A stretch of 64,000 bases of DNA, taken from positions 97,347 to 161,346 of the forward strand of contig JALNKA010000001.1 in NCBI GenBank assembly GCA_023261815.1, written 5' to 3'. Position numbers and translations under genes: made by a program. Positions 4,417-52,727 of this stretch are shown here, piece by piece. Every line of letters begins with the position of its first letter. Within the stretch, counting starts at the first letter, position 1. The DNA is from Candidatus Wolframiiraptor sinensis (GTDB lineage: Archaea > Thermoproteota > Nitrososphaeria_A > Caldarchaeales > Wolframiiraptoraceae). Below the pieces are notes generated by a model that was not told the origin of the DNA, did no database searches, and was given only the letters and a program-made list of their open reading frames with translations.

Positions 4417-4785
4417 ATGTCTCTCGCGAGAATCCCCATAAAGATCGAGATAGAGGGGCTTGGAGAGCTCGATGGAGAGCTGATCAGGTTTCACGCTCCG
4501 CTAACAGTAAACGCCCTCGTCAGGATGCTTCCGATAAGTGGCGCGATCGCCAAATGGGATTACGCGATATACTTTCAGGCTCCGCTTGAGAGGGGGGCTG
4601 AGAAGCCGGTGAGCCGCGTGAGCGCGGGCGACATCCTCTACTGGCCTCCGGGAAGCTGCGTGGCGCTAGCCTTCGCCGAGGCCACTCCACCGGCTCAAAT
4701 GACTAGGATAGGCAGATATCAAGCCGACTATGAGAGGCTCAGGGATATCCGAGTGGGAGCGAGAATAATGATTAGGAAGGCCTAG
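4417..4785 (+). CDS. hypothetical protein
   Basis: 122-aa ORF with coding-like composition; function unknown. Confidence 0.35.
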   Translation: MSLARIPIKIEIEGLGELDGELIRFHAPLTVNALVRMLPISGAIAKWDYAIYFQAPLERGAEKPVSRVSAGDILYWPPGSCVALAFAEATPPAQMTRIGRYQADYERLRDIRVGARIMIRKA

Positions 4786-7994: not shown

Positions 7995-8588
7995 GTGGCC
8001 GCGGTATTGATGGCAATACTGCTCTTAGGGAGATTCTTCTGCGGCTGGATCTGCCCCATGAGCATAGTGCTCCGCCTCCTGGGCAGTAAAGGTGCGGGGG
8101 GTAACGGCCGCCTATACATCCCCGCATTCTCGGTGAGCCTAGCCCTCATCCTACTCGCATCATGGATCATGGGATTCCCCGTATTCTGCATCATATGCCC
8201 CATCGGCATCGTAAGCAGGCTCATAATCTCGGCGCTAAGCGGGATATTGGATATATGGGGCATACTGTGGGGGGCAGCTATCTTCACGGCCACCATTACG
8301 CTGATCAAGGCGCGCGCATGGTGCAATGGCCTATGCCCATTGGGCGCGCTCCAAACGCTTCTAAGCCCTCTCAAATTAACGAGAATAAAGGCATCCCATG
8401 AATGTAAAAAGTGCAATGCTTGTGTCGAAGCCTGCCCGCTGAAGCTCGAGATTCATGAGGATCGCAGAGCTGATCAGATGAGCTGCACCACGTGCTTGGA
8501 ATGTGTTAAAACATGCCCATTTAACGCACTTAAGCTAGTCGTGATCCGCCCCCTCTCATCAGACAAATCTGGCGCGAAGAAGGAGTAA
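7995..8588 (+). CDS. NapH/MauN-like integral-membrane 4Fe-4S protein; the 5' end is uncertain
   Basis: FCGWICP and CNGLCPLGALQ motifs plus two CxxCxxCxxxCP motifs. The reading frame stays open and hydrophobic back to about 7803 without a canonical start codon. Confidence 0.6.
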   Translation: MAAVLMAILLLGRFFCGWICPMSIVLRLLGSKGAGGNGRLYIPAFSVSLALILLASWIMGFPVFCIICPIGIVSRLIISALSGILDIWGILWGAAIFTATITLIKARAWCNGLCPLGALQTLLSPLKLTRIKASHECKKCNACVEACPLKLEIHEDRRADQMSCTTCLECVKTCPFNALKLVVIRPLSSDKSGAKKE

Positions 8589-8689: not shown

Positions 8690-9124
8690 CTAGATTATTA
8701 TGCTTGCGGCGTTGGCTATTCTGGGCCAGCGCTCCGCAGCCTCCCTCGCCACGGGCCCCTTGATCTCCGTCGCCTTGAGATCGCCCTCGGGCGTGACTAA
8801 AACCGCCGCGGTATCCTCAAACATTATCCAAGTTCCATCGGGTCTCCTGTAGGGCTTCTTCTGCCTTATTATCACGGCATGCATTGGCTTCTTCCTCAGA
8901 TCTATCGGCCCCTTCTTCACGGTAACGGATACCAAGTCTCCAACGGCCGCGCATGGATGCCTTCTCCTCCTAGTCTTGATGCCATGCACCTGTATTATCT
9001 TGAGAAGCTGGGCGCCGGAGTTATCGGCGCATGGGATGAGCGAGCCCACGTTAATGGTTCTAGGTATGTCGGGCCTTCTCTCGAGAATCCCCACGGCTGC
9101 TACGGCCCTGCTCCTCTTTGACAT
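8690..9124 (-). CDS. rpl14: 50S ribosomal protein L14
   Basis: Strong uL14 similarity across the whole protein (for example GSLIPCADNSGA, TPEGDLKATEIKGPVAREAAE). Confidence 0.9.
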   Translation of the reverse strand: MSKRSRAVAAVGILERRPDIPRTINVGSLIPCADNSGAQLLKIIQVHGIKTRRRRHPCAAVGDLVSVTVKKGPIDLRKKPMHAVIIRQKKPYRRPDGTWIMFEDTAAVLVTPEGDLKATEIKGPVAREAAERWPRIANAASIII

Positions 9125-9164
9125 GCCGCACCTCCTCCTCCAAGATCTCGGGGGCTTTTAAGGA

Positions 9165-9497
9165 TCACTTTCCCTCGAGCTTCTCGATTACCACGAAATG
9201 GACGGTCTTGCTGAGCGGCCTGCACTCCGCGATTCTCACCCTATCCCCTTCCTTAACGTCCATGCACGGCGGGAGATGGGCTGGTATATTGCTCCTCCGC
9301 CGCTCATAGCGCTTATACTTCCTAACATAGTGAAGATATTCCCTCCTGACTATCACGGTCTTCGCCATCCTCTTCTTGTGGATGACCCCCGTGAGAATGA
9401 TTCCCCTAATCTTAAGGTGGCCGTGGAATGGGCATTTCGGGTCATCGCACTCCCTCTCCGGGGGCTTAACCGGTATCCCTATGTTCCTCGCGGGCAT
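9165..9497 (-). CDS. rps17: 30S ribosomal protein S17
   Basis: The uS17 pattern ([23 protein letters not shown]...[18 protein letters not shown]). Confidence 0.9.
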
Positions 9498-9575
9498 GCT
9501 CGTATCACCCTATCCTCCATAGCGCCGGTGCTGGGGCTGACTCGGAGCAGCCTCCTAAATAACGTTTCCAGACTC

Positions 9576-9863
9576 CTACCACCTCCTCAGCCTCCTCTTC
9601 AACCTCTCCTCCGGCCTGCCGACCAGAATCCTTCCATCTACCAGAACTTTCTCCCCCGAGGGTAACTCGAATATAAACCTGTAAGCGTTCTTCGGCAGGC
9701 TCACGATCCTGCCATCATCTCTCAGCATTCTCAGCATATTCCTGGTCTCCCCGATGATCTCGCCGGCGTGCGCGAGGCCCACCCTCAGGGGCATAGCTTT
9801 GGCCCTGAGGCCCAGAAGCTCATGCCTCGGCAGATTTCTCGGGGTCAGCGTCCTAATCTTCAT
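9576..9863 (-). CDS. rnp1: RNase P protein component 1 (p29/Rpp29)
   Basis: Rpp29 signature (GEIIGETRNMLRMLRDDGRIVSLPK...VDGRILVGRPEERLK) and the conserved position directly upstream of rps17. Confidence 0.75.
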   Translation of the reverse strand: MKIRTLTPRNLPRHELLGLRAKAMPLRVGLAHAGEIIGETRNMLRMLRDDGRIVSLPKNAYRFIFELPSGEKVLVDGRILVGRPEERLKRRLRRW

Positions 9864-9886
9864 CGCGGAGAGTATGCTCAGGCAGC

Positions 9887-10609
9887 TTAAATCTCGATCG
9901 CGAGATCGGGGTTTAGGAGGATTATCGAGGAGCTCTCAGGCTCATAGGCCATCTGAACTCCTCTGACCTCGAGCCCGGCCGCATGTGCTCTCGCTATTAG
10001 ACTGCATAACGCTGGATCCGCCTCGTAGTTGAGCTTGAAGCCCCTGATATTAGGTATGGCCGCGATGAAGGCGATGATAGCCCGTGCGCCGCGCTCGACC
10101 AGCCCCATCATCTCCCCCACCTGTTTTACCGCTCTCGTGGATGGGCAGTCGGGATAAGAGGCGTAATCGCCAAGCCTGAGAGCCGCGCTCTTGAGCTCCA
10201 GGATCAAGTCCGCGCCCTCGCGTGACATCAAGTAGTCTATTCTCGCCCCAGCGAGTGGGATATTTCTTCTCGAGATCTGATAGCCCTCGAGCCATGGGAT
10301 GAGACCTCGATTAACCGCCTCCTCGAAAGCTCTCGACTGGAGGTACGTATCTACTACAGCGGCGAGCCCGTCCTCGGAGATCGCGAAAAGTCTTCTCCGA
10401 AGTTTCTCCGGCCTCACGGTCGGCGCGCAGAACCCTCTCCTCCCTCGCACGATGTACTCCAGAAGTCTCCCGGTATTCTGCAGGAATACGAGATCCTCCT
10501 GATCATCAATCTTCACCCTGATCGTAAACCTGTTCAATCTCTCGAGTATCAGGCACTCCTCTACGCCCTGTAAAACCAGTAGCCTAGAGTATTCGCGGGC
10601 GGGGCACAA
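9887..10609 (-). CDS. sfsA: SfsA-family (sugar fermentation stimulation protein) nuclease-like protein
   Basis: The SfsA N-terminal pattern (ERLNRFTIRVKI...FLQNTGRLLE) in a protein of the expected ~240 aa. Confidence 0.65.
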   Translation of the reverse strand: MCPAREYSRLLVLQGVEECLILERLNRFTIRVKIDDQEDLVFLQNTGRLLEYIVRGRRGFCAPTVRPEKLRRRLFAISEDGLAAVVDTYLQSRAFEEAVNRGLIPWLEGYQISRRNIPLAGARIDYLMSREGADLILELKSAALRLGDYASYPDCPSTRAVKQVGEMMGLVERGARAIIAFIAAIPNIRGFKLNYEADPALCSLIARAHAAGLEVRGVQMAYEPESSSIILLNPDLAIEI

Positions 10610-10619
10610 AGCCTAGCCC

Positions 10620-11828
10620 TCAAGATAATTCGAGAAGCATTTTCACCCCTTCTCTAATTCTCCGGATATCCTCCTCGCTCGCGGAGCCTTGGAATTCTAT
10701 CTTGTCAATGATCTTAAAGCCGACGCTCGCAAGCTTCTCAGAGATCTTTCTCGCGGCGGCGGGGCCCCAGCCATACGACCCTATCACGAGCACGGGCTTC
10801 TGCGGAATCTTCCTAGAGATTAAATCCACCAGATGCTCAAGCGGCGGATAAACTCCAGCTTCATACGTCGTCGCGGCGATGATTATTGCCCTCGAGTCCA
10901 TAGCATCGCTCAGTATCTCCGAGAACGGCGGCTGGCTCGAGTCGTTGAACCTGTAGAAGATCGCTCTGCCTCCCAGCCTCTCAACCTCATTCGCCGCGAT
11001 GGCCGCGGCCGCCTCAAGCAAGCGATACATGGAGCCGGTGATGATCAGGATCTTATTGCCATCGGGGCGGCCCTCAGCCAAGCTCCTGTAGTAATCGATG
11101 ATCAGCTGCGGATTCCTCCTCCAGATGAGCCCATGAGCTGGCGCGAGCATCCCTATGCTCAGCTTAAGGCTCTGAATTTTCTCTATGTTCCGGGTTATGT
11201 GCTGCCTGTAAAATCCTATTATGTTCGCGACGTATTTCCTGACGCTGGGCAGGTACTCCTTCACGACGCTTTCATCATCATCGAATATTGCTCTAGGTGT
11301 AGAATATCCTCCAAAGACATCACACGTTATCAGCGCCCTCCGGTCCGGGAGGTAGCTCATTATGGTCTCGGGCCAGTGGAGCCATGGCGTATAAATTATC
11401 TTGATCTTCTCGCCCGCCAACGCGAGCTCCTCCCCATCCTTCACGAGCCTAAATCTCGGAGCTATCCTGTAGAATGTCTCGATCATGGGCTTGGCCATGG
11501 GATGGGCTACGACCTCCGCCCTAAACCCGTTTGCCTCGAGAACTTTCGGGAGGGAGCCTGAGTGATCCGGCTCAGCATGATGAACTATCACATGCGTTAT
11601 ATCTTTCAGGTCCACGATCCCCATAATTGCCTCAATCAGGCCGTCGGCGTAGATGCTCTTCCAGCCGTCGAAGAGAACCGCGCCGCTATCCCCCACGAGT
11701 AGATACGCGTTATAAGTCACCTTCTCCGGTATACTCCAGATGCCCTCAAAATACTCGATATCCACATCATCAATTCTCAGCAGGTGAAATCCGGGCTCAA
11801 TCTCCTGAGATAAGACTCTCGAAGCCAT
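10620..11828 (-). CDS. fprA: flavodiiron protein (FprA; metallo-beta-lactamase plus flavodoxin domains)
   Basis: The diiron motif HHAEPDHSG and a C-terminal flavodoxin-like domain. Confidence 0.85.
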   Translation of the reverse strand: MASRVLSQEIEPGFHLLRIDDVDIEYFEGIWSIPEKVTYNAYLLVGDSGAVLFDGWKSIYADGLIEAIMGIVDLKDITHVIVHHAEPDHSGSLPKVLEANGFRAEVVAHPMAKPMIETFYRIAPRFRLVKDGEELALAGEKIKIIYTPWLHWPETIMSYLPDRRALITCDVFGGYSTPRAIFDDDESVVKEYLPSVRKYVANIIGFYRQHITRNIEKIQSLKLSIGMLAPAHGLIWRRNPQLIIDYYRSLAEGRPDGNKILIITGSMYRLLEAAAAIAANEVERLGGRAIFYRFNDSSQPPFSEILSDAMDSRAIIIAATTYEAGVYPPLEHLVDLISRKIPQKPVLVIGSYGWGPAAARKISEKLASVGFKIIDKIEFQGSASEEDIRRIREGVKMLLELS

Positions 11829-11993
11829 TTTTCAAACACTCTCCAATCGCAGAATCTCGCATAAAATGGGGAAGAATTGGTGTGGGGAAAGAATAGGGGG
11901 TTGCCGGCTCCTCAGAGCCCACACAAGCTGCAGTATTCTCCTGCCGGAACCTTTTCAGCCTTAACATCGAGTTCAACCTCTGAGGCGTTGCCA

Positions 11994-12412
11994 TTAGATT
12001 TCCTCGAGGAGGCTTGTGAAGAAATCGTGGTGCTCCTCCTCATCCGCGAGTATCTTCTCGAAGAGCGTTGCAGTTGTCGTGTCGCTAAGTCCCGGGCTTT
12101 CTGGATTATCTGCTTATAGAGCTTTATCGCCTTCTCCTCATCCTTGACATCCTGCTCGATCATCTCCTTGAGGGTCTTCCCGACGTTTATGGGATCGGGC
12201 TGGGTCGTCGGGGTGCCTCCGAGGTAGTTCAGCCTCTCAGCTATCATCTCGGCGTGCTTCATCTCGGTTATCGCGATCTTTTTCAGCTCATCGCTCACCG
12301 CGAATCCCTTGACTCCTTTCCACTGGACGTGCTGCCACATGTATTGTATCGAGACTTGGAGCTCCCTAGCGATGGCCGCATTCAGCAAATCGAGAAGCTC
12401 CTTGGACGACAT
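11994..12412 (-). pseudogene. bacterioferritin/Dps-like ferritin-fold protein with an apparent 1-nt deletion near 12091-12096
   Basis: The N-terminal portion (TEMKHAEMIAERL...) is in frame A. The conserved C-terminal helix (ATLFEKILADEEEHHDFFTSLLEEI, ending at stop 11994) is in the +1 frame after a cccggg run. Confidence 0.6.
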
Positions 12413-12437
12413 AGCCGATCACCGGCTTCAATGAGAT

Positions 12438-13097
12438 TTAAAGCTTCTTGTAGCAGAACCACCAGTCATAGCACTCGATCTCCTTGGCCCTCGCTTTTTC
12501 GAGCCTCTCCTTGGCGGTCTTCTCGTCGCGCGGCGGCGGGATTATCACCTTATCCCCGATCAGCTCGTTATTCGGCCAGTTGGCCGGCATGGCGACCTTC
12601 TTCTCATCCGAGATCTGGAGTGCCTTGACGATCCTCAGTATCTCGTCCATGTTTCGGCCTATCTCCTGCGGATAATATAGTATCGCCCTCACGATGCCCT
12701 CGGGATCGATTACGAATACAGCTCTAACGGTGTTGGTTCCCTTCCCAGGATGTATCATACCCAGCATGCAGGCTATCTTCCCCTGATCGTCGGCGATTAT
12801 CGGGAACTTGATCTCGACGCCGAGCTTCTCCCCGATCCACTCGACCCATTTGATATGAGAGAATACTTGGTCTATGCTGAGGCCTATGAGCTCGCAGTTT
12901 AGCCTCTTGAACTCTTCATATCTCTTCTGGAACGCAACGAATTCCGTCGTGCAAACAGGCGTGAAATCGGCTGGATGCGAGAACAATACTACCCACTTGC
13001 CCTTATAGTCGTCCGGGAATCTTATCACGCCATGAGTCGTCTGAGCTTCGAAGCTCGGAACCTTTTCACCCAATAACGGAATGCTTGGACGCTCCAT
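12438..13097 (-). CDS. peroxiredoxin (Prx6/1-Cys-type archaeal Prx)
   Basis: FTPVCTTE peroxidatic-cysteine motif with a full-length Prx fold. Confidence 0.9.
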
Positions 13098-13121
13098 TTT
13101 TCACCACCTCATTCCACGTTG

Positions 13122-13132
13122 CGTATATATTA
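13122..13132. promoter_or_regulatory. palindromic TATA box (CGTATATATTA) shared by the divergent prx and lrp genes
   Basis: Centred about 26 nt upstream of the lrp ATG at 13153 and about 30 nt upstream of the prx start at 13097 on the opposite strand. Both genes therefore look leaderless. Confidence 0.5.
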
Positions 13133-13152
13133 TGGCCGAAATCATAAATTTT

Positions 13153-13575
13153 ATGGTTCGAATATCGGACCAGGAACTCCTAAAGATGTTGATGGAAAAT
13201 GCAAGGATGTCCTACGTCGAGATCGCGAGGGCGCTGAATGTATCGGAGGCGGCGGTGAGGAAGAGGGTTAAGCGTCTCGAGAATCTTGGAATCATTAGTA
13301 GATACACGATAGAGGTGGATCCTAGGAAGCTGGGCTACGAGGTTGTGGCGATCATAGGCTTGGACGTGGATCCGGAGCACCTACTCTCGGTAATGGATGA
13401 ATTAAAGAAGCGGGAGGAGGCAGTGAGGCTCTATCTGACGAGCGGAGATCACATGCTCGTGGCGGAGTGCTGGTTTAAGAGCTCCCAAGAGCTCTCGAGC
13501 TTCATCAGGAGGCTCGAGTCCAGGGAGGGTGTCAAGAGAGTCTGCCCAGCAATAGTCTTGGAGAGGCTCAAGTAA
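13153..13575 (+). CDS. lrp: Lrp/AsnC-family transcriptional regulator
   Basis: HTH (SYVEIARALNVSEAAVRKRVKRLE) plus a RAM domain. I take the start at ATG 13153 rather than at the longer upstream extension of the annotated ORF. Confidence 0.85.
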   Translation: MVRISDQELLKMLMENARMSYVEIARALNVSEAAVRKRVKRLENLGIISRYTIEVDPRKLGYEVVAIIGLDVDPEHLLSVMDELKKREEAVRLYLTSGDHMLVAECWFKSSQELSSFIRRLESREGVKRVCPAIVLERLK

Positions 13576-13588
13576 AATGATTGGGGTC

Positions 13589-13792
13589 CTAGAGCTTTAT
13601 CCCCCTCTCCCTGAGCATCGTCAATATTCTCGCGATTCTCCTCCTCACGTTTCTTATCTGGGCTGTTTTCTCCAATCCGCCGCCAGCGGTCGTTTTGCTC
13701 CTGATTAGCGCGAGCTCCGCCCGGAGCCTATCGAGCTCGCTTATCAGCTCCTCGCTACTCTTTTCCCTCAGCTCCCTCACCTCTCTCACCAA
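13589..13792 (-). CDS. rpl29: 50S ribosomal protein L29
   Basis: uL29 signature (ELRELREKSSEELISELDRLRAEL...IRNVRRRIARILT). Confidence 0.85.
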   Translation of the reverse strand: MVREVRELREKSSEELISELDRLRAELALIRSKTTAGGGLEKTAQIRNVRRRIARILTMLRERGIKL

Positions 13793-14414
13793 ACTCGACC
13801 ACCTCCATCTCGCCCGGCTCCCGCGCCACCACCCTTATCTCCTCGGGCATCGGCGCATCAGGCGGATAGATCTTCACCTTTATCCCATATATTCCCGGCT
13901 TCAGTAGTATCGTCGCCTTACCAACCTTGATGTACTTGAGCGCTGGGTCGCCGGACTTCGGCATTATCCCGGCCGTGTACTTCTCAGTTCTATGTCTGGC
14001 CGAGGTCAGCTTACCGCTTATCTCGATCTCAACTCCCCGGGCTCCGGCCTCCATGATCCTCCTCAAAGCCCAGAAGGCCACTCTCCTATGCCTTACACCT
14101 CTCTCCATCGCCTGGGCAATCCTGTAGGCCATGACCTGCGGATTCAGCTCCGGAACCTCTATCTCGGCGACCGTGACATTCGGGTTCTCAACGCCGAACC
14201 TCTTCTCGAGCTCCTCGGTTATCTCCCTAATCGTCCTCCCCCTAGGCCCGATAACCCTGCCCGGCCTCATAGCGTAGATCGTGACCCTAGTTCCCATCGG
14301 CGTGAATGTTATATCGACCCCCCCGAAGCCGGCATCTTTCAGCTTCTCAGCCAGATACTCGTGGATCTCGGCCTTCTTTATCTTGCTGGATAAGATATTC
14401 TTGATCGCCGACAT
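13755..14414 (-). CDS. rps3: 30S ribosomal protein S3
   Basis: uS3 KH domain and C-terminal domain, with a Gly/Glu-rich tail. It overlaps rpl29 by 38 nt. Confidence 0.9.
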   Translation of the reverse strand: MSAIKNILSSKIKKAEIHEYLAEKLKDAGFGGVDITFTPMGTRVTIYAMRPGRVIGPRGRTIREITEELEKRFGVENPNVTVAEIEVPELNPQVMAYRIAQAMERGVRHRRVAFWALRRIMEAGARGVEIEISGKLTSARHRTEKYTAGIMPKSGDPALKYIKVGKATILLKPGIYGIKVKIYPPDAPMPEEIRVVAREPGEMEVVEFGERGEGAEGKE

Positions 14415-14415
14415 C

Positions 14416-14883
14416 TCAGCGCCTCACCTCTCCTATCACCTCAATATGAACTAGCTGCTTATCGTAGGGCGTGGCCCTCCCGAAAGCCCTGGGCATGAAC
14501 TTGCTAATCCTCCTAGCCTTATGAGCGGCCGCGTGGACTATGACGACCTCATCCGGGTCAAGGCCCTTGAAGTCGGCATTAGCCTCCAAGCTCTCCAGAA
14601 GTTTGAGCATGTGCTTGGCGACCTTCACGGGGTATCCTCCAGCCCCCCTGGTCTCGCTATGATGAGCTCTATTCTTCTTGTACCTGCGGTAGGGTATCAT
14701 CCTCCTCATAGCTATAACATCCTCCATTAGCTTCCTAGCCTCTGGTATCGTCAATCCTATGATCGCCCTACAAACCTCCCTAGACCACTTAGGAGATACA
14801 TCAATCTCCCTCAAGCTAGCCTTGACCGTTCTCGCCTCATCCAGCTCCTTAACCGAGTAGCCCCAATGAGGCATCCCGAGCAC
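14416..14883 (-). CDS. rpl22: 50S ribosomal protein L22
   Basis: uL22 similarity (for example KASLREIDVSPKWSREVCRAIIG). Confidence 0.9.
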   Translation of the reverse strand: MLGMPHWGYSVKELDEARTVKASLREIDVSPKWSREVCRAIIGLTIPEARKLMEDVIAMRRMIPYRRYKKNRAHHSETRGAGGYPVKVAKHMLKLLESLEANADFKGLDPDEVVIVHAAAHKARRISKFMPRAFGRATPYDKQLVHIEVIGEVRR

Positions 14884-14924
14884 CCTTAGCCTCCCTTCCG
14901 ACCCCTTTTCCGCAAGCCATTCTT

Positions 14925-14932
14925 GAGACCTC
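14925..14932 (-). promoter_or_regulatory. TATA box (TTTAAATA on the minus strand) of the rpl22-rps3-rpl29 operon
   Basis: About 40 nt upstream of the rpl22 start, in a 270-bp non-coding spacer. Confidence 0.4.
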
Positions 14933-15155
14933 TATTTAAAGCGTGACCTAGTTTGGTCATAGCAGAACGAGCAGAATTTTCAATCTAGCTAGTAAGGTTA
15001 TAAGATTGAAGGGGGAAAAGAGGGTGGTGAGGGGCATCTGGACAGTCCTTATTAATCTTTGAATGAGCCCGGCGAGAGGAGATGCTAGTGCTTCCTAATC
15101 TTTTCGGCAGGAATTTTGGGAAAAGAAATTTAGGAAGATCTTTAGGAAAAAAGCC

Positions 15156-16751
15156 TTGGCAAGGCGCGCTATGAAGCTCTCGGAGCTACTCTTTCTCGAG
15201 GGCCCACCTCCATTCTTAGAATCTCGTGGTAAGCTTGAAGAGATTCTTCGGAGGGCTGAGCTTCCTCTCGACCTTGAGCTCCGAGCTCTTACGAGAGAGA
15301 ATCTTGAGGCACTTGCGAGCATCTCGATCGAGGTGCTCAGGCCCGATGAGCGTAAGCAATTCTTTGAGATTCTGGTCAAGCTCTTGAGAGAGGAGGGCAA
15401 TGAGCTTCACGGAGTTTTCGAGCCTAAAATAATCGTTGAAAGAGCGGAGAATCGGAGAGGCTTCCATGAAGTTATCTCGGCGATCGATTTGAGAAGCGCT
15501 GAGCTCGAGGCGGACAGGTGTCTTAGGTGCAGAATCCCCAGATGCGTTAACGCGTGCCCCGTGAAGTTTCCGGTTCCAGCATTTTTGAAGGCTGCGGCAA
15601 GCGGCAAGCATGATGTGGCGTATAAGATATCCCTGACCATATATCCGACTCTCGGAATCTGCGGTAGAATATGTATTGGCTTCTGCGAGACTGCCTGCAC
15701 TCTTAATCAAGTATTCGGGAACCCCGTTAGGATTAGGATGGTTAAGCGCGCAGTCGCAGACGCGGTGTCAATGGGGGATAACCTACCTAAGCCTAGGCCG
15801 CGCTCCGGGTTTAAGGTTGCGATAATAGGCTCCGGCCCCGCGGGGATTACCGCGGCATATCACCTGAGGCTCATGGGCCACGATGTTACGATCTTCGAGG
15901 CCGGGAAGAAGCCTGGGGGCAGGCTCATTGACGCGATACCAGAGTTTAGATTACCCTCACACATCGTTGAGAAAGAGGTTGGGATATTGAGCATGCTTGG
16001 GGTGGAGTTTGGGCTGGAAGTAAAGCTCGGCCGAGACATGACCATTGATGATCTTTTCAAGGAAGGGTATGAGGCGGTTTTTATAGCGGTGGGCGCGGGC
16101 GAGTCCAATGTTCCTCGGATAAAGGGGAGCGAGCTGGATGGTGTTCACGCTGCGTTGGAGTTCCTGAAGCTTGTCAAGGCGGGCGTCATCAATTCCATCT
16201 CGGGCAAAGTCTGGGTTATCGGCGGAGGTAATGTGGCGATGGATGCGGCTCGAACAGCGTTGAGGCTGGGAGCAGACTCGGTCAAGATAATGTATCGGAG
16301 AAGCGCGGAGGAGATGCCCGCTAGGAAGGAGGAGGTCGAGGAGGCAATTAACGAGGGAATAGAGATAATGTTTCTCACGCAGCCCATAGAGCTGATAGGC
16401 GATAGGCGGCTCCGAAAAATAAGATGCATCAGGATGATGCTTGGGGAGCCGGGGCCGGATGGCAGGAGAATGCCCATACCGGTAGAGGGCTCCGAGTTCG
16501 AGGTCGAGGCCGATCACGCGATATTCGCGACAGGTGAAGCTCCCTCAACAAGATGGCTCTTGGAAAAAGATGGAATAGAGGTTATGGAGGATGGAAGGAT
16601 AAAGGTTAATGAGAGATTAGAGACTAGCAGGCGCGGGGTATTCGCGGGCGGAGACGCCGTTAGAGGCCCCTCGCTTTACAGCATAGCATCAGCTGATGGA
16701 ATAAAGGCTGCCAGGGAGATTGACCGGTATCTGAGGAGCCTTTCTTCCTAG
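15156..16751 (+). CDS. GltD/SudA/NfnB-like NAD(P)H oxidoreductase (FAD/NAD(P)-binding plus an N-terminal 2x[4Fe-4S] region), with an extra ~100 aa N-terminal extension
   Basis: Cys motifs CLRCRIPRCVNACP and GICGRICIGFCETAC, followed by GSGPAG and GGGNVAMD dinucleotide-binding motifs. Confidence 0.75.
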   Translation: MARRAMKLSELLFLEGPPPFLESRGKLEEILRRAELPLDLELRALTRENLEALASISIEVLRPDERKQFFEILVKLLREEGNELHGVFEPKIIVERAENRRGFHEVISAIDLRSAELEADRCLRCRIPRCVNACPVKFPVPAFLKAAASGKHDVAYKISLTIYPTLGICGRICIGFCETACTLNQVFGNPVRIRMVKRAVADAVSMGDNLPKPRPRSGFKVAIIGSGPAGITAAYHLRLMGHDVTIFEAGKKPGGRLIDAIPEFRLPSHIVEKEVGILSMLGVEFGLEVKLGRDMTIDDLFKEGYEAVFIAVGAGESNVPRIKGSELDGVHAALEFLKLVKAGVINSISGKVWVIGGGNVAMDAARTALRLGADSVKIMYRRSAEEMPARKEEVEEAINEGIEIMFLTQPIELIGDRRLRKIRCIRMMLGEPGPDGRRMPIPVEGSEFEVEADHAIFATGEAPSTRWLLEKDGIEVMEDGRIKVNERLETSRRGVFAGGDAVRGPSLYSIASADGIKAAREIDRYLRSLSS

Positions 16752-17434
16752 CGGTACTCTAGGACTACCATGACGTGGTCGCGCTCATACGGCTCGAGGG
16801 AGATCACCTCGATGGGCTTGAGCCCGTTTTTCTCGAGCACCTCGACCTCCCTCTTGTAGATCACCTCGGGCTCCTGGACGCTGTCTATGCTTCTCGCCTT
16901 GACGGCTAGGTAGCCGTGGCCGCCGCTCCTGAGCATCAACCTCGCATTGTCTGAGAATAGCTTCGCCTGCTCCGGCTGCGCCACGTCGCAGTAGATGACA
17001 TCCACCTCTCCAACGATCGGCGCGTAGGCCTCCGGTTTTCTAGCATCTCCGAAGATAGGGGTGACGTTCATCCTCTTATCTGAGACGTTTCGCTTAAACT
17101 GTATCATGACCCTGGCGGCGAACTCAACTCCATATAGCACACCTCTCTCGCCTATTATGTCAGAGACGTGGCTCGACGTCGTCCCGGTGGCCGTTCCGAG
17201 GTATAGAACTCTCGAGCCGGGCTTGATGAACATGTTCTCCATGCCCTTCATTATGGCCGCGGCCAGCTTGCTCCGATATGGTATCCAGCTCCGATACTCC
17301 TCGCCCCTTATCCTGTAAAGCTTCTCGCCATAGACCTGAACTCCTGGAACAAGGTTCCTCGTGGCGAGCACTTTCTCCTCATCTTTTATCCAGTAGACCC
17401 CCTCGAACTTCTCATGAGGTATGAGTTCCACCAT
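16748..17434 (-). CDS. flpA: fibrillarin (rRNA/tRNA 2'-O-methyltransferase)
   Basis: Full-length fibrillarin similarity (VLYLGTATGTTSSHVSDI). Confidence 0.9.
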   Translation of the reverse strand: MVELIPHEKFEGVYWIKDEEKVLATRNLVPGVQVYGEKLYRIRGEEYRSWIPYRSKLAAAIMKGMENMFIKPGSRVLYLGTATGTTSSHVSDIIGERGVLYGVEFAARVMIQFKRNVSDKRMNVTPIFGDARKPEAYAPIVGEVDVIYCDVAQPEQAKLFSDNARLMLRSGGHGYLAVKARSIDSVQEPEVIYKREVEVLEKNGLKPIEVISLEPYERDHVMVVLEYR

Positions 17435-19397: not shown

Positions 19398-21704
19398 TTA
19401 GTCAGCCTCCAGATATCCGGCGGCATAAACTTGACCAACGGCGGTTCCACCATCTCCAGGTGGAATCGCCTCATTCGCTCGGATCCTGAGCCCCGAGGCG
19501 CGCTCTATCGCCGATAATATTATGCGGTTGACCGCGGCCCCACCTGAGATGCATATAGTTTTAACACCCAGCTCGCGTGCTTTCTCGGCCGCGGCGAGCC
19601 CGAGGCATTCTCCCAGCACGTATTGCGCCGTGTAGGCTAGATCATGTCTTGAGTTGTTGTCAAGATTCTCCACAAGGGCTCTCATGATCTCGCCGGTCAT
19701 TATGATGAGCGCGCCGCCCTTATCGGAGATGAAGTTATCTAAGCTCTCAATTATCGGCTCTCCGCCATGGGACGCCTCCTCCAGCATTATCGCCGGCTCA
19801 CCCTCATATGTTCTCTCGAAGCAGAGGTTTAGGAGGGCTGAAACGCTGTCCAAGAACCTGCCGGTGCTGGATGTCATGGGCCCCCTTCTCTGCCTGATCT
19901 GGGATAGAACAGCATTGAGCTCCTTGGCCCCATGCTTGAGCCCTCTTAGGAGGCCGCGCTTCCGAATGAACAATTCAACTTCATCTAAATCCATGAACTT
20001 GGAGAGAATTGATGCGAGCATTCTGACGGGTCTGATAGCTGCCAGGTCTCCGCCGGGCATAAGCGAGTATTCTAGGAATCCGGCGCGCTTGAATGCTCCA
20101 TCAGCCCATGTCAAGATCTCGCCTCCCCAGATTGCTCCATCAAGCCCGTAGCCCGCGCCGTCGATCATTATGCCCACAGCAGGCTCCTCTGGGTCGTGGC
20201 CCATCTCAGCCATGACGGAGGCGAAGTGAGCTAAATGATGTTGAACCAGCCTCAGCTCGAGCCCATTGCCGGACGCGTATTTCTCCGCGGCCTTCCTTGA
20301 ATGATAGGCTGGATGAAGATCAGCTGCGATTATGGACTTCCTCTCCTTCAGGCCATAGCACTCCGCGAGGAACTCTAGGTTGCTGATATGCTCCTCGAGC
20401 ACCTTGGGGTTATCCATATCCCCGGAGTATGGGGCTAAAATTATCTTGTCGTCGAATCCAACAGCGCCATTAGTCTCGAGATCTCCTCCAAATGCTATTA
20501 CGGGCTTCCTGAGATTATGCCTGAGCTTGAGAATTCTCGGAGCATAACCTCTCCCATATCGTAGGATCACGAGGCCGCCGTGTGTCGGCCTAACAACAGA
20601 GTCGTCAACTCTGTGAACTATCCTCCTATTATGGGTTAAGATGTAGTCAGCTATGCTCGTGAGCTCCCTTAGCCTCGAGTCATCGCTTATCATCGGGTCG
20701 CCGTGAACATTCCCGCTGGTCATCACGAGGAACTTATCCCTGGTCTCCATGAGGAGCAGGTAATGGAGCGGAGTATATGCGAGCATTATTCCGAGGCTAC
20801 GAAGCGATGGGGCCACGTAGTCGGAGACAGGGCAGCCCTCCCTCCTCGGGAGGATTATTATGGGCTTGATGAATCCGGAGAGCAGCTCGATCAAGTCATC
20901 GGGTATCTCGACTAGCTTACTCGCGACCTCCAGGTTGAGCGCCATTATCGCGAAAGGTCTCCTAGGCCTTCTCTTCCTCCTCCTGAGCTCCGACACGACA
21001 TCATCATCGCTCGCGAGGCAGGCTATATGGTAACCGCCAATTCCCTTAACCGCGACGATCATCCCCTCATCGATGAGCCTCGCCGCCTCACTCAGCGGAT
21101 CTTCGACCTCAACTCTCTCCAGATTCCTATCTAGGAGGAATAGCTTGGGGCCGCATCTAGGGCAGCTTATCCCCTGAGCATGATATCTCCTCTCATTCCA
21201 GAGATCATTATACTCGCTTAAGCACTCGCCGCATAATGGGAAGTCCCTCATCGCGGTATTCTCCCGATCATAGGGCGGCCTGTAGATCATCGAGTACCTG
21301 GGCCCGCACCAGGCGCAGCTGTTGAATGGGTACCTATACCACCTGCTCGCGGGGTTCACTACCTCCTCCAAGCAGTGATTGCATGCCGCAATGTCCTGCG
21401 GAATCTCCGAGGCCATAACTCTCTCACTGCCGCTATCGAGAATCATGAAGTCTTGGAAGCCCGCTGGCTCCAGCTCCTCGATCCTCACGACCTCGAGCTT
21501 GGCCGGCGGAGGATGCTTACTCCGAAGCAGCCTGAGGAACTCATTAACGCGATCATCCTCCGACTCGATGACAATCTCGACCTCGCCGCCGCCGAGATTT
21601 CTCACATATCCCCTCACGCCCGCGATCTTCGCTATTCTCTTGACGAAGGGCCTGAATCCCACGCCCTGAACCATCCCAGTAACGTAGATCCTCAAAGCTC
21701 TCAT
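19398..21704 (-). CDS. hypF: [NiFe] hydrogenase maturation carbamoyltransferase HypF
   Basis: Acylphosphatase domain, two Zn-finger CxxC pairs, and YrdC and Kae1-like domains (768 aa). Confidence 0.9.
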   Translation of the reverse strand: MRALRIYVTGMVQGVGFRPFVKRIAKIAGVRGYVRNLGGGEVEIVIESEDDRVNEFLRLLRSKHPPPAKLEVVRIEELEPAGFQDFMILDSGSERVMASEIPQDIAACNHCLEEVVNPASRWYRYPFNSCAWCGPRYSMIYRPPYDRENTAMRDFPLCGECLSEYNDLWNERRYHAQGISCPRCGPKLFLLDRNLERVEVEDPLSEAARLIDEGMIVAVKGIGGYHIACLASDDDVVSELRRRKRRPRRPFAIMALNLEVASKLVEIPDDLIELLSGFIKPIIILPRREGCPVSDYVAPSLRSLGIMLAYTPLHYLLLMETRDKFLVMTSGNVHGDPMISDDSRLRELTSIADYILTHNRRIVHRVDDSVVRPTHGGLVILRYGRGYAPRILKLRHNLRKPVIAFGGDLETNGAVGFDDKIILAPYSGDMDNPKVLEEHISNLEFLAECYGLKERKSIIAADLHPAYHSRKAAEKYASGNGLELRLVQHHLAHFASVMAEMGHDPEEPAVGIMIDGAGYGLDGAIWGGEILTWADGAFKRAGFLEYSLMPGGDLAAIRPVRMLASILSKFMDLDEVELFIRKRGLLRGLKHGAKELNAVLSQIRQRRGPMTSSTGRFLDSVSALLNLCFERTYEGEPAIMLEEASHGGEPIIESLDNFISDKGGALIIMTGEIMRALVENLDNNSRHDLAYTAQYVLGECLGLAAAEKARELGVKTICISGGAAVNRIILSAIERASGLRIRANEAIPPGDGGTAVGQVYAAGYLEAD

Positions 21705-52232: not shown

Positions 52233-52727
52233 ATGGGAAGGAAGGCTCGAGAAATAGTTGAGAAGGCTGGAGTAAAGGTCGATGAGCTCATCGAGATGCT
52301 GAAAAAGGCTTATGCCGATGAGTGGATAGCCTTCTACTATTACAATCTCTTGGCTAAGCTGGCCAAGGGCATCGGCTCCACGGAGATCGCGGATCAGATA
52401 AAGAAGATAGCGGATGAGGAGCTCGAGCACCAGTCGGAGCTTGCCGATAGGATCATCCAGCTCGGCGGAGAGCCTCCGAGAAGATTCGAGGATTTAGTTA
52501 AGATCGCGAACTGCCCATACGTCGAGGTTCCGAAGAACACTGGCGACTTAAAAGCAGTGGTCAGGGCGATAATCGAGGCGGAGGGATGCGCGATCGAGGC
52601 CTACGATAAGATACTGAAATGGCTGAAGGATGTTGGCCCCGACCCTGTAACCTTCCACGTCATCAGGCACATACTGCAGGAAGAGGTCGAGCACGAGGAC
52701 TTATTCGAGACAATCCTGGGAGAGTAG
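52233..52727 (+). CDS. ferritin-like / Dps-like diiron protein
   Basis: Four-helix ferritin-like pattern with E-x-x-H pairs (EELEHQ, EEVEHE). Confidence 0.65.
   Translation: MGRKAREIVEKAGVKVDELIEMLKKAYADEWIAFYYYNLLAKLAKGIGSTEIADQIKKIADEELEHQSELADRIIQLGGEPPRRFEDLVKIANCPYVEVPKNTGDLKAVVRAIIEAEGCAIEAYDKILKWLKDVGPDPVTFHVIRHILQEEVEHEDLFETILGE

Follow-up and report, generated by a model that had tools for sequence, protein, structure and literature searches.

A redox-stress gene island lies within the ribosomal protein cluster of Wolframiiraptor

The stretch of DNA analyzed here (the window, 64 kb of contig JALNKA010000001.1 of Candidatus Wolframiiraptor sinensis) carries two fragments of the archaeal ribosomal protein cluster, uL22-uS3-uL29 and p29-uS17-uL14, in which p29 is the RNase P protein also called Rnp1 or Pop4. 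Between the uL29 stop and the p29 start lie 3,725 bp that hold five nonribosomal open reading frames (ORFs), for an Lrp/AsnC-type regulator, a peroxiredoxin (Prx), a ferritin-like protein, a flavodiiron protein (FDP), and the nuclease SfsA. This island is found at the same junction throughout the genus Wolframiiraptor, and the interruption between uL29 and p29 appears to be derived, through a single old insertion at the level of the genus that is neither order-wide nor recent. Gene identities were taken from the ORF list and from Pfam and NCBIfam profile scans (Table 1). They bear out an initial annotation of the window, which had placed all eleven genes as given here and had described a separation of about 3.7 kb in mixed orientation; lrp is the sole gene of the locus on the plus strand.

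The synteny comparison that the initial annotation proposed was carried out with 59 species-level loci and extra contigs (L numbers in the following), onto all of which the window proteins and reference ribosomal proteins were mapped. A neighbor-joining tree was built from uL22, uS3, uL29, uS17, and uL14. The uL29/p29 junction is occupied by the island in the window and in L001–L021, L070–L072, and L079, and is free of it in L023–L031, L035–L050, and L052–L063. It is present in all 11 of the species-level loci of the Wolframiiraptor clade that are long enough to judge, as well as in four further contigs, and its distribution is not patchy. In the tree, the island-bearing loci (the window, L011–L021, L070–L072, and L079) form one clade, whose sister group (L025, L026, and L028) is island-free. 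Benthortus, Geocrenenecus, Terraquivivens, the Calditenuaceae, and the Bathyarchaeia are likewise island-free, and in these lineages and the sister group uL29 generally runs into p29-uS17-uL14. The two genes are 36–42 bp apart in the sister group and overlap in Terraquivivens, most Geocrenenecus, and the Bathyarchaeia. Synteny thus supports the initial annotation in its view that a module for detoxification of oxygen and reactive oxygen species came to lie inside the ribosomal protein cluster by insertion or rearrangement. That annotation had also allowed that the interrupted order might be ancestral across the whole order; the uninterrupted outgroups show that it is not. The island is typical of its lineage at the level of the genus and not peculiar to the window genome.

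The host lineage was defined through uS3. The window uS3 is identical in more than 20 metagenome-assembled genome (MAG) contigs at NCBI (for example, GCA_023252675.1 and GCA_038837735.1), all of which have the same gene order. In a scan of one genome per species, the uS3 of Candidatus Wolframiiraptor gerlachensis is 95% identical, and the next matches are from Benthortus, Geocrenenecus, and Terraquivivens (Wolframiiraptoraceae), followed by the Calditenuaceae and Bathyarchaeia. The relatives are consequently not the crenarchaeal ones that the initial annotation had in mind, as Wolframiiraptor belongs to the Caldarchaeales (formerly Aigarchaeota) and not to the Crenarchaeota in the strict sense.

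Table 1. Features of the interrupted cluster and its island (positions in the window)
Feature	Position	Strand	Evidence and remarks
uL22	14416–14883	−	NCBIfam PRK04223, 182 bits (cut-off 137); heads the upstream ribosomal protein fragment
uS3	13755–14414	−	Pfam KH_2 and Ribosomal_S3_C
uL29	13589–13792	−	Pfam Ribosomal_L29, and TIGR00012; ends the upstream fragment, left edge of the insertion
Lrp/AsnC regulator	13081–13575	+	Pfam HTH_AsnC-type and AsnC_trans_reg
Divergent lrp/prx control region (candidate), 55 bp	13098–13152		Read from the sequence
Peroxiredoxin, archaeal Prx6 type	12438–13097	−	NCBIfam PRK13189, 388 bits (cut-off 211); Pfam AhpC-TSA and 1-cysPrx_C
Ferritin-like ORF (166 amino acids)	11912–12412	−	Chimeric reading frame
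Disrupted ferritin/bacterioferritin-like gene	11994–12412	−	Alignment to orthologues; 1-nt deletion at ~12093
Superoxide reductase remnant, desulfoferrodoxin type	11912–11986	−	Alignment to the L011 protein; ~290 bp deleted
Class A flavodiiron protein (FprA type)	10620–11828	−	Pfam ODP, Lactamase_B, and Flavodoxin_1
SfsA nuclease	9887–10609	−	TIGR00230, 159 bits (cut-off 126); right edge of the insertion
RNase P p29 (Rnp1/Pop4)	9576–9863	−	Pfam RNase_P-MRP_p29, 47 bits (cut-off 27); heads the downstream ribosomal protein fragment
uS17	9165–9497	−	NCBIfam PRK08572, 174 bits
uL14	8690–9124	−	NCBIfam PRK08571, 186 bits; last ribosomal protein gene of the downstream fragment

The proteins of the island have diverged strongly across the clade. 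The lowest identities to the window proteins are 48% for the FDP, 46% for SfsA, and 53% for Lrp, with uS3 at 83% or above. Because of this divergence, and because the island is fixed in the whole genus, the insertion is old. Its age is matched by an unremarkable composition. The island genes have a GC content of 0.51–0.56 and a third-position GC content (GC3) of 0.67–0.71 (window mean GC3 0.667, standard deviation 0.062), GC skew follows the coding strand, and only the FDP gene is mildly atypical in codon usage (rank 3 of 28). The comparison of the island with its flanks that the initial annotation suggested therefore revealed no difference in GC, GC3, or codon usage, and because the island matches its flanks this test is uninformative.

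The gene order of the uL22...uL15 block is regarded as nearly constant in Archaea and Bacteria alike, and its archaeal core, to which Rnp1, S4e, L32e, and L19e are added, is contiguous in nearly all archaea surveyed; the exceptions in that survey are split clusters in Nitrosopumilus (N. aquarius) and some Heimdallarchaeota (PMC10833476). Compared with the canonical S10-spc core described there, uL22-uS3-uL29-(Rnp1)-uS17-uL14-uL24-S4e-uL5 (PMC10833476), Wolframiiraptor has the same genes in the same relative order and orientation, and its uL22-uS3-uL29 part is just as tightly packed (uS3 begins 1 nt 3' of uL22 and overlaps uL29 by 38 nt). Unlike the canonical cluster, however, that of Wolframiiraptor is broken three times: before uL22, after uL29 by the 3.7-kb island, and after uL14. 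Thus the window retains the gene identities of the cluster, while contiguity and minimal spacers (3 nt or less in the outgroups) are lacking, as are uS19/uL2 and everything from uL24 onward. Searches with tblastn across the 64-kb window gave no match for uL24, S4e, uL5, uS14, uS8, uL6, L32e, L19e, uL18, or uS5 (Pfam-verified queries from L039) or for uL3, uL4, uL23, uL2, or uS19 (Pfam-verified queries from L063), in accord with the initial statement that rpl24, rps4e, and rpl5 lie elsewhere.

The full cluster occurs in the outgroups Bathyarchaeia (L055, L060–L063) and Terraquivivens (L035–L039). In the Bathyarchaeia, L063 reads uL3-uL4-uL23-uL2-uS19-uL22-uS3-uL29-p29-uS17-uL14-uL24-S4e-uL5, where the locus ends, and L055 and L060–L062 run from uL22 on through uS14, uS8, uL6, L32e, L19e, and uL18 to uS5. 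Terraquivivens L035–L039 are unbroken from uL22 through uS5. The break between uS19 and uL22 is found in all sampled Caldarchaeales, in which the cluster starts at uL22. The break between uL14 and uL24 is common to Geocrenenecus, Benthortus/L024, the group of L025, L026, and L028, and Wolframiiraptor, that is, to the family except Terraquivivens; past it come a TYW2-like gene on the other strand and S25e. Both of these breaks are older than the insertion of the island. The initial annotation was accordingly right that the downstream half stops after uL14, but this stop is an older event common to most of the family.

The spacers within the cluster differ between lineages in a graded manner (Table 2). 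Those between uL22 and uS3 and between uS3 and uL29 are tight in the Bathyarchaeia, Terraquivivens, the sister group, and Wolframiiraptor, and a uL22-uS3 spacer of 41–143 nt occurs in a few Geocrenenecus and Calditenuaceae-like loci.

Table 2. Spacers at three junctions of the cluster (negative values are overlaps)
Lineage	uL29/p29	p29/uS17	uS17/uL14
Bathyarchaeia, Terraquivivens	−4 to −17 nt	−7 to 1 nt	−20 to 2 nt
Geocrenenecus	−8 nt	−7 nt (179 nt in L027)	93–191 nt
Sister group (L025, L026, L028)	36–42 nt	63–64 nt	54–55 nt
Wolframiiraptor	3.2–4.05 kb (1.8 kb in L015)	~78 nt; 506–712 nt with an extra gene; −7 nt in L020	40–43 nt

Conserved AT-rich boxes are located upstream of several genes of the cluster. 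A TAAATAG motif ~55–60 nt upstream of uL22 is conserved across the family. The 78-nt spacer before uS17 holds the motif AACGTTATTTAGGAGGC (consensus GAAAC(G/A)TTATTTA(A/G)NAGGC), which is kept in 11 related loci, even where a different gene lies upstream. The 40-nt spacer before uL14 has a conserved CTTAAAAGCC / TTTAAAGCC motif, with TTTAAAGCC ~40 nt upstream of uL14 and then a GGTGG element. A TTTAA-type box precedes p29 by ~28 nt, both in the sister group, where it is inside the 40-nt spacer, and in Wolframiiraptor, where the SfsA stop codon falls within a conserved GATTTAAG motif, 28 nt from the p29 start. From their conservation and position, these boxes may be TATA-type promoter elements of the archaeal kind. 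In the sister group, p29, uS17, and uL14 are already set apart by spacers that contain conserved TATA-like motifs, which suggests that the operon was split into separately promoted units before the insertion took place.

The ancestral island has the composition Lrp, then Prx-ferritin-superoxide reductase-FDP-SfsA. Most species of the clade have Lrp(−), then Prx, a ferritin (~142 amino acids), a desulfoferrodoxin-type superoxide reductase (125–131 amino acids), the FDP, and SfsA. The superoxide reductase is intact in L070, L071, and L079 by Pfam (Desulfoferrod_N and Desulfoferrodox) and was recognized by sequence similarity in L011–L016 and L020. L018 and L071 carry a nonorthologous ferritin-like gene in the ferritin slot (33% identity), L017 has a comparable ferritin-like match (32%) just after Prx, and L016, L019, L021, L070, and L072 have the island without ferritin. 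SfsA is missing from the island of L071. In L015, only Lrp and Prx-superoxide reductase are left and FDP-SfsA is gone; because a remnant of the SfsA 3' end is still recognizable before p29, the short island of this species is a secondary deletion. An apparent deletion polymorphism of FDP and SfsA in the same-species MAGs L002–L005 and L007–L009 was discarded, as each truncation proved to be a run of 93–100 N, which is a scaffold gap.

The window species itself has a damaged form of the island. Its ferritin frame departs from the orthologues by a 1-nt deletion ('gcccg-ggac' in the window and 'gcccgcgagc' in the orthologues). The frameshift precedes the helix with the EEEHH ligands, and an intact four-helix bundle is obtained only after one base is added; with 1 nt restored, the frame specifies a 139-amino acid ferritin that would stop at 11994 and that ends in ...LFEKILADEEEHHDFFTSLLEEI, as in L011. 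Without it, the frame reads on into the tail GNASEVELDVKAEKVPAGEYCSLCGL, which aligns to residues 95–121 of the 125-amino acid superoxide reductase of L011. The superoxide reductase gene of the window is thus incomplete, its last 27 codons being left as the tail of the ferritin ORF. The frameshift and the chimeric ORF are present in 10 of 10 MAGs of the same species. What the initial annotation called a bacterioferritin-like gene is most probably a pseudogene joined to the remnant of another gene, as judged from these alignments; its ferritin origin stands, but it is not an intact gene. The island is, then, partly decaying in the window species. A second, distant ferritin-like gene (52284–52724, plus strand; 30% identical to the undamaged ferritin from the L011 island) is located elsewhere in the window and might compensate for the frameshifted copy.

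The Prx and the FDP of the window island look intact. The Prx translation has a PVCTTE motif with the peroxidatic cysteine and a C-terminal CYDWWFC. The FDP has a metallo-beta-lactamase-like domain, a flavodoxin domain, and an HAEPDH diiron motif, and its database relatives carry the name 'FprA family A-type flavoprotein'; a flavorubredoxin identity was ruled out (score of 190 against a cut-off of 635 for the NorV equivalog). Judged by the established functions of their families, peroxiredoxin removes peroxide, superoxide reductase removes superoxide, flavodiiron proteins reduce oxygen or NO, and ferritin sequesters iron. The enzymes of the island make up a coherent set for defense against oxygen and reactive oxygen species. 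W. gerlachensis lives anaerobically and relies on tungsten-dependent oxidoreductases of extreme oxygen sensitivity (PMC9246946).

The lrp gene and uL29 are convergent, and lrp and the peroxiredoxin gene (prx) are divergent. The probable start of lrp is the ATG at 13153, which gives a protein of 140 amino acids, the length in most MAG gene calls. The motif ATGGTTCGAA at this start is conserved in all relatives, and the start of the longest ORF would overlap that of prx. The score of the protein is under the cut-offs of every specific NCBIfam equivalog. The intergenic region between lrp and prx has the conserved AT-rich boxes AAAATTTAT and ATAATATATA and a Shine-Dalgarno-like GAGGTGGTG before prx; it is conserved across Wolframiiraptor species and is recognizable in Geocrenenecus L027. 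The divergent arrangement and the conservation of these 55 bp suggest that Lrp may control prx. FDP and SfsA also adjoin each other in the nonribosomal locus L074, where they occur with a gene for 8-oxoguanine glycosylase (Ogg). This linkage of SfsA with FDP (and Ogg) hints, speculatively, at a role in nucleic acid repair.

Taken together, these observations make it likely that a ready-made stress module was inserted once, long ago, in the ancestor of Wolframiiraptor, into an operon that had already been loosened, and between transcription units. The tight operon uL22-uS3-uL29-p29-uS17-uL14 would first have gained promoter-like spacers before p29, uS17, and uL14, and we propose that the insertion was tolerated because of this loosening. 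A module in which a divergent Lrp/peroxiredoxin pair preceded ferritin, superoxide reductase, FDP, and SfsA would then have been placed into the short uL29-p29 spacer in the common ancestor of the genus. Its landing site, immediately before the p29 promoter, would have been at a boundary of transcription units and not within a unit. The units of the island itself would be lrp, prx(-ferritin-superoxide reductase), presumably under Lrp control, and FDP-sfsA, and the island may shield an obligate anaerobe that relies on tungsten enzymes sensitive to oxygen. Decay would have come later in the window species, in which ferritin was frameshifted and most of the superoxide reductase gene was deleted. 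In this account, the identities of the genes, their phylogenetic distribution, the spacer lengths, the conservation of motifs, and the gene decay are observed, and the function of the promoters, the control by Lrp, and the order of promoters first and insertion second are what we infer.

Several points weigh against such an insertion. The tree is a neighbor-joining tree of five small proteins that carries no support values, and the uL29/p29 junction has been disrupted independently in L024 and in Geocrenenecus L032–L034. Conserved AT-rich motifs are the whole basis of the promoter assignments, and the one before p29 overlaps the stop codon and C-terminal codons of SfsA, so that coding constraint could explain its conservation. 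The spacings of 10 bp between FDP and SfsA and 23 bp between SfsA and p29 would be just as compatible with transcription of p29 together with the island. A horizontal transfer into the genus ancestor is also conceivable. Nor does peroxiredoxin help to trace the origin, because it is 80–86% identical to proteins labeled Methanomethylia, Thermofilum, Odinarchaeota, Nanoarchaeia, and Bathyarchaeota, across archaeal phyla, while uS3 is only ~50–56% identical to that of the Bathyarchaeia. This conservation is due either to extreme constraint or to exchange among thermophilic archaea. For the same reason, we dropped L076 (82% peroxiredoxin identity) as a close relative with a pre-insertion site.

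The module may have come from relocation of a vertically inherited module, from a local swap of blocks, or from an ancient horizontal acquisition. Similar oxidative-stress clusters of anaerobes (L073–L078) have the same protein families in similar pairings, but are located in ordinary metabolic neighborhoods; such modules are found inside the ribosomal protein cluster only in Wolframiiraptor and directly upstream of it only in Geocrenenecus. L076 has Lrp(−), then Prx-HTH-FDP-Ogg, and L074 has ferritin-x-FDP-SfsA-Ogg, with a ferritin 69% identical to that of Wolframiiraptor, both in a nonribosomal context. L075 has Prx-FDP-rubrerythrin with a superoxide reductase gene nearby, and L077 has Prx-superoxide reductase.

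In six Geocrenenecus loci (L027, L029, and L031–L034), Lrp(−) and then Prx(+)-CydA-CydB-Ogg directly adjoin uL22, 0.1–5 kb upstream of it, in the same relative orientation as in the Wolframiiraptor island (CydA and CydB are subunits I and II of cytochrome bd oxidase, and Ogg is a DNA glycosylase). A local swap could account for this proximity: the ancestor shared by Geocrenenecus and Wolframiiraptor would have been Geocrenenecus-like, with the module directly ahead of uL22, in Wolframiiraptor the module and uL22-uS3-uL29 would have exchanged places with orientation kept, and the cargo CydAB-Ogg would later have become ferritin-superoxide reductase-FDP-SfsA, or the reverse. That one cassette should have landed twice, independently, within ~5 kb of these three genes in so small a genome seems unlikely by chance, by inference rather than calculation, and Ogg, which follows FDP or SfsA in L076 and L074, connects the two types of cargo. 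However, the intervening lineages, Benthortus/L024 and L025, L026, and L028, are without stress genes within 10 kb, and because they lack the module near the cluster, at least two extra losses would be needed. Moreover, L024, L025, L026, and L028 have an upstream context of Fib-GltD(−)-uL22 in common with Wolframiiraptor, and Benthortus L023 has Fib directly upstream of uL22 with no GltD match. No remnants of stress genes were found between GltD and uL22 in L025 and L028, where the ORFs are surface protein-like, glycosidase-like, and membrane ones only, and Lrp and Prx are the sole genes common to both modules. A swap of this kind is conceivable, and we regard it as doubtful.

Acquisition of the block, or of its FDP-SfsA part, from another thermophilic archaeon is somewhat harder to sustain, and we judge it unlikely. 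The best FDP matches outside the Wolframiiraptor clade are 43–47% identical and come from mixed phyla (Bathyarchaeia, Ignisphaera, Thermococcus, and Acidilobales), with no copy of intermediate identity found from a sister genus. Some species have the nonorthologous ferritin-like gene in the same slot, and L074, with its 69% identical ferritin, has an FDP cluster labeled Bathyarchaeota, the only one of ten outgroup FDP clusters for which taxon names were obtained. The gap in FDP identity is nonetheless weak evidence for transfer, because divergence of the FDP inside the genus (down to 48%) is as large as the distance to other phyla. None of the marks of a horizontally acquired island (a shift in composition; an integrase, tRNA gene, or repeats; patchy presence) was found, and codon usage does not deviate. 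All ORFs in the gap are accounted for by the ORF list and Pfam, and none is integrase-like; ARAGORN detected no tRNA gene across the 64-kb window; and flanking repeats at the island are only short ones that resemble chance matches. Because no member of the genus lacks the island, a transfer would have to be an ancient one that dates to the base of the genus, not something particular to the window genome. Rfam searches at the junctions gave no relevant family; a HOTAIR_2 match at 4447–4538 (E = 0.026), well under the gathering score, was set aside as chance.

We consider it improbable that the position of the island was selected, with p29-uS17-uL14 co-transcribed with FDP-sfsA or the prx operon and made responsive to Lrp or oxygen, and with read-through from the strong uL22-uS3-uL29 unit running antisense to lrp and modulating this regulator. 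Such rewiring would be in keeping with the gene spacing. Prx, ferritin, FDP, SfsA, p29, uS17, and uL14 are all co-directional on the minus strand, with spacers of 25, 83, 10, 23, 78, and 40 bp, and the stops of uL29 and lrp are 13 bp apart in the window, with a TTTT run alone between them (~2 to 18 bp in L014, L018, L019, and L020, as calculated from ORF coordinates where both ends are readable). Stress modules are associated with the cluster in two genera, and Thor- and Odinarchaeota carry an HSP20 gene within this cluster (PMC10833476). Against it stand the conserved promoter-like motifs before p29, uS17, and uL14. Furthermore, a constrained co-transcript is unlikely because in some species p29 and uS17 are separated by an unrelated gene (TM1506, or DUF2703 on the opposite strand), and SfsA is missing in L071 and FDP-SfsA in L015. 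The broader idea that placement is not neutral deserves equally little credence; stress modules would have been recruited repeatedly to the ribosomal protein cluster, as Lrp and Prx-CydAB-Ogg in Geocrenenecus, the island in Wolframiiraptor, and HSP20 in Thor- and Odinarchaeota, with the cluster as a high-expression harbor or through co-regulation, and with FDP-sfsA-p29(-uS17-uL14) as one oxygen-responsive transcript and uL29 read-through antisense to lrp. If true, this would tie the capacity for translation and the supply of RNase P to oxidative stress in an organism that is an obligate anaerobe.

All sequences are metagenome-assembled and several same-species MAGs have scaffold gaps (N runs) inside FDP or SfsA, but a chimeric contig or binning error that joined ribosomal protein fragments to unrelated genes is hardly credible, because the same order recurs in at least 25 independent assemblies (at least 10 of the same species and 15 of related species) from differing studies and sites, at identities from 100% down to 48%, with junctions free of gaps in the window and most loci.

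The insertion resembles a case known from other archaea, the HSP20 gene in the S10-spc cluster of Thor- and Odinarchaeota, which was described as an atypical gain for a cluster of such strong conservation (PMC10833476). As with HSP20 and the split clusters of that survey, the change in Wolframiiraptor consists of a lineage-specific insertion of stress-related nonribosomal genes and of lineage-specific splitting. Unlike in the HSP20 case, the cargo is a five- to six-gene module with its own regulator, not one chaperone gene, and it is accompanied by stepwise gain of spacers and by several further independent insertions in sister lineages. This is ordinary operon decay, a known kind of gene-order change and not a new kind of system. 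As far as the literature was searched, we found no description of the arrangement for the Caldarchaeales, and the main Wolframiiraptor paper makes no mention of peroxiredoxin or superoxide (PMC9246946).

The lineages sampled form a graded series, from the tight operon of Terraquivivens through the promoter-like spacers of the sister group to the multi-gene insertions of Wolframiiraptor, L024, and Benthortus. The series shows how such a cluster can come apart and could serve as a small natural model of operon decay. As a gene-order character, the insertion also marks the genus Wolframiiraptor cleanly, and its set of oxygen and peroxide defenses in an anaerobe (Prx, ferritin, superoxide reductase, FDP, and a candidate Lrp regulator) may help cultivation.

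Other genes have entered the cluster at several of its junctions. Between p29 and uS17, a TM1506-family gene is located in L014 (5970–6467), L015 (10308–10739), L018 (5910–6359), L070 (9213–9674), and L071 (8542–8988), and a DUF2703 gene on the opposite strand in L021 and L072 (4679–5122, minus strand, in L072); the window species has neither. In one Calditenuaceae lineage, two MaoC-like dehydratase genes, read from translations, occupy ~1.3–1.5 kb between p29 and uS17 on the opposite strand (L059, 11192–12243, minus strand; also L056, L064, and L067) and constitute another independent insertion in the ribosomal protein cluster.

From translations, L024 has ketol-acid reductoisomerase-like and Ldh_2-like genes between uL29 and p29 (10840–12962) and a three-gene ABC transporter between uS17 and uL14 (13590–17321). 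In Benthortus L023, the order of uS17 and p29 is swapped, and a toxin-antitoxin-like pair, likewise read from translations, lies between p29 and uL14 (10862–12167). In Geocrenenecus, the stretch behind uL29 (6958–7515 in L032, 10895–16416 in L033, and 10909–14932 in L034) holds a tRNA-splicing endonuclease-like ORF on the other strand, identified by eye. By eye, an isoleucyl-tRNA synthetase-like ORF comes next in L033 and L034, and L033 also has a transposase fragment-like ORF at the break. In L033 and L034, p29-uS17-uL14 was not found within 10 kb of uL29, and the L032 sequence ends ~0.8 kb past uL29.

As for the surroundings of the locus in the window, the start of uL22 is probably the ATG at 14874 (152 amino acids), on the strength of gene calls in identical MAGs and of conservation, as the start of the longest ORF is probably too far upstream. 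Upstream of uL22 lies a gene for a GltD-like oxidoreductase on the opposite strand, and downstream of uL14 are unrelated Fe-S protein genes (7995–8588, plus strand). A HypF maturation gene is located at 19398–21704 on the minus strand, followed upstream to ~25 kb by genes for the large and small subunits of a [NiFe]-hydrogenase and a DHODB-type Fe-S/NAD-binding subunit (Pfam labels from the identical locus L001); these hydrogenase genes, a few kb from the ribosomal protein genes, look like a soluble hydrogenase cluster.

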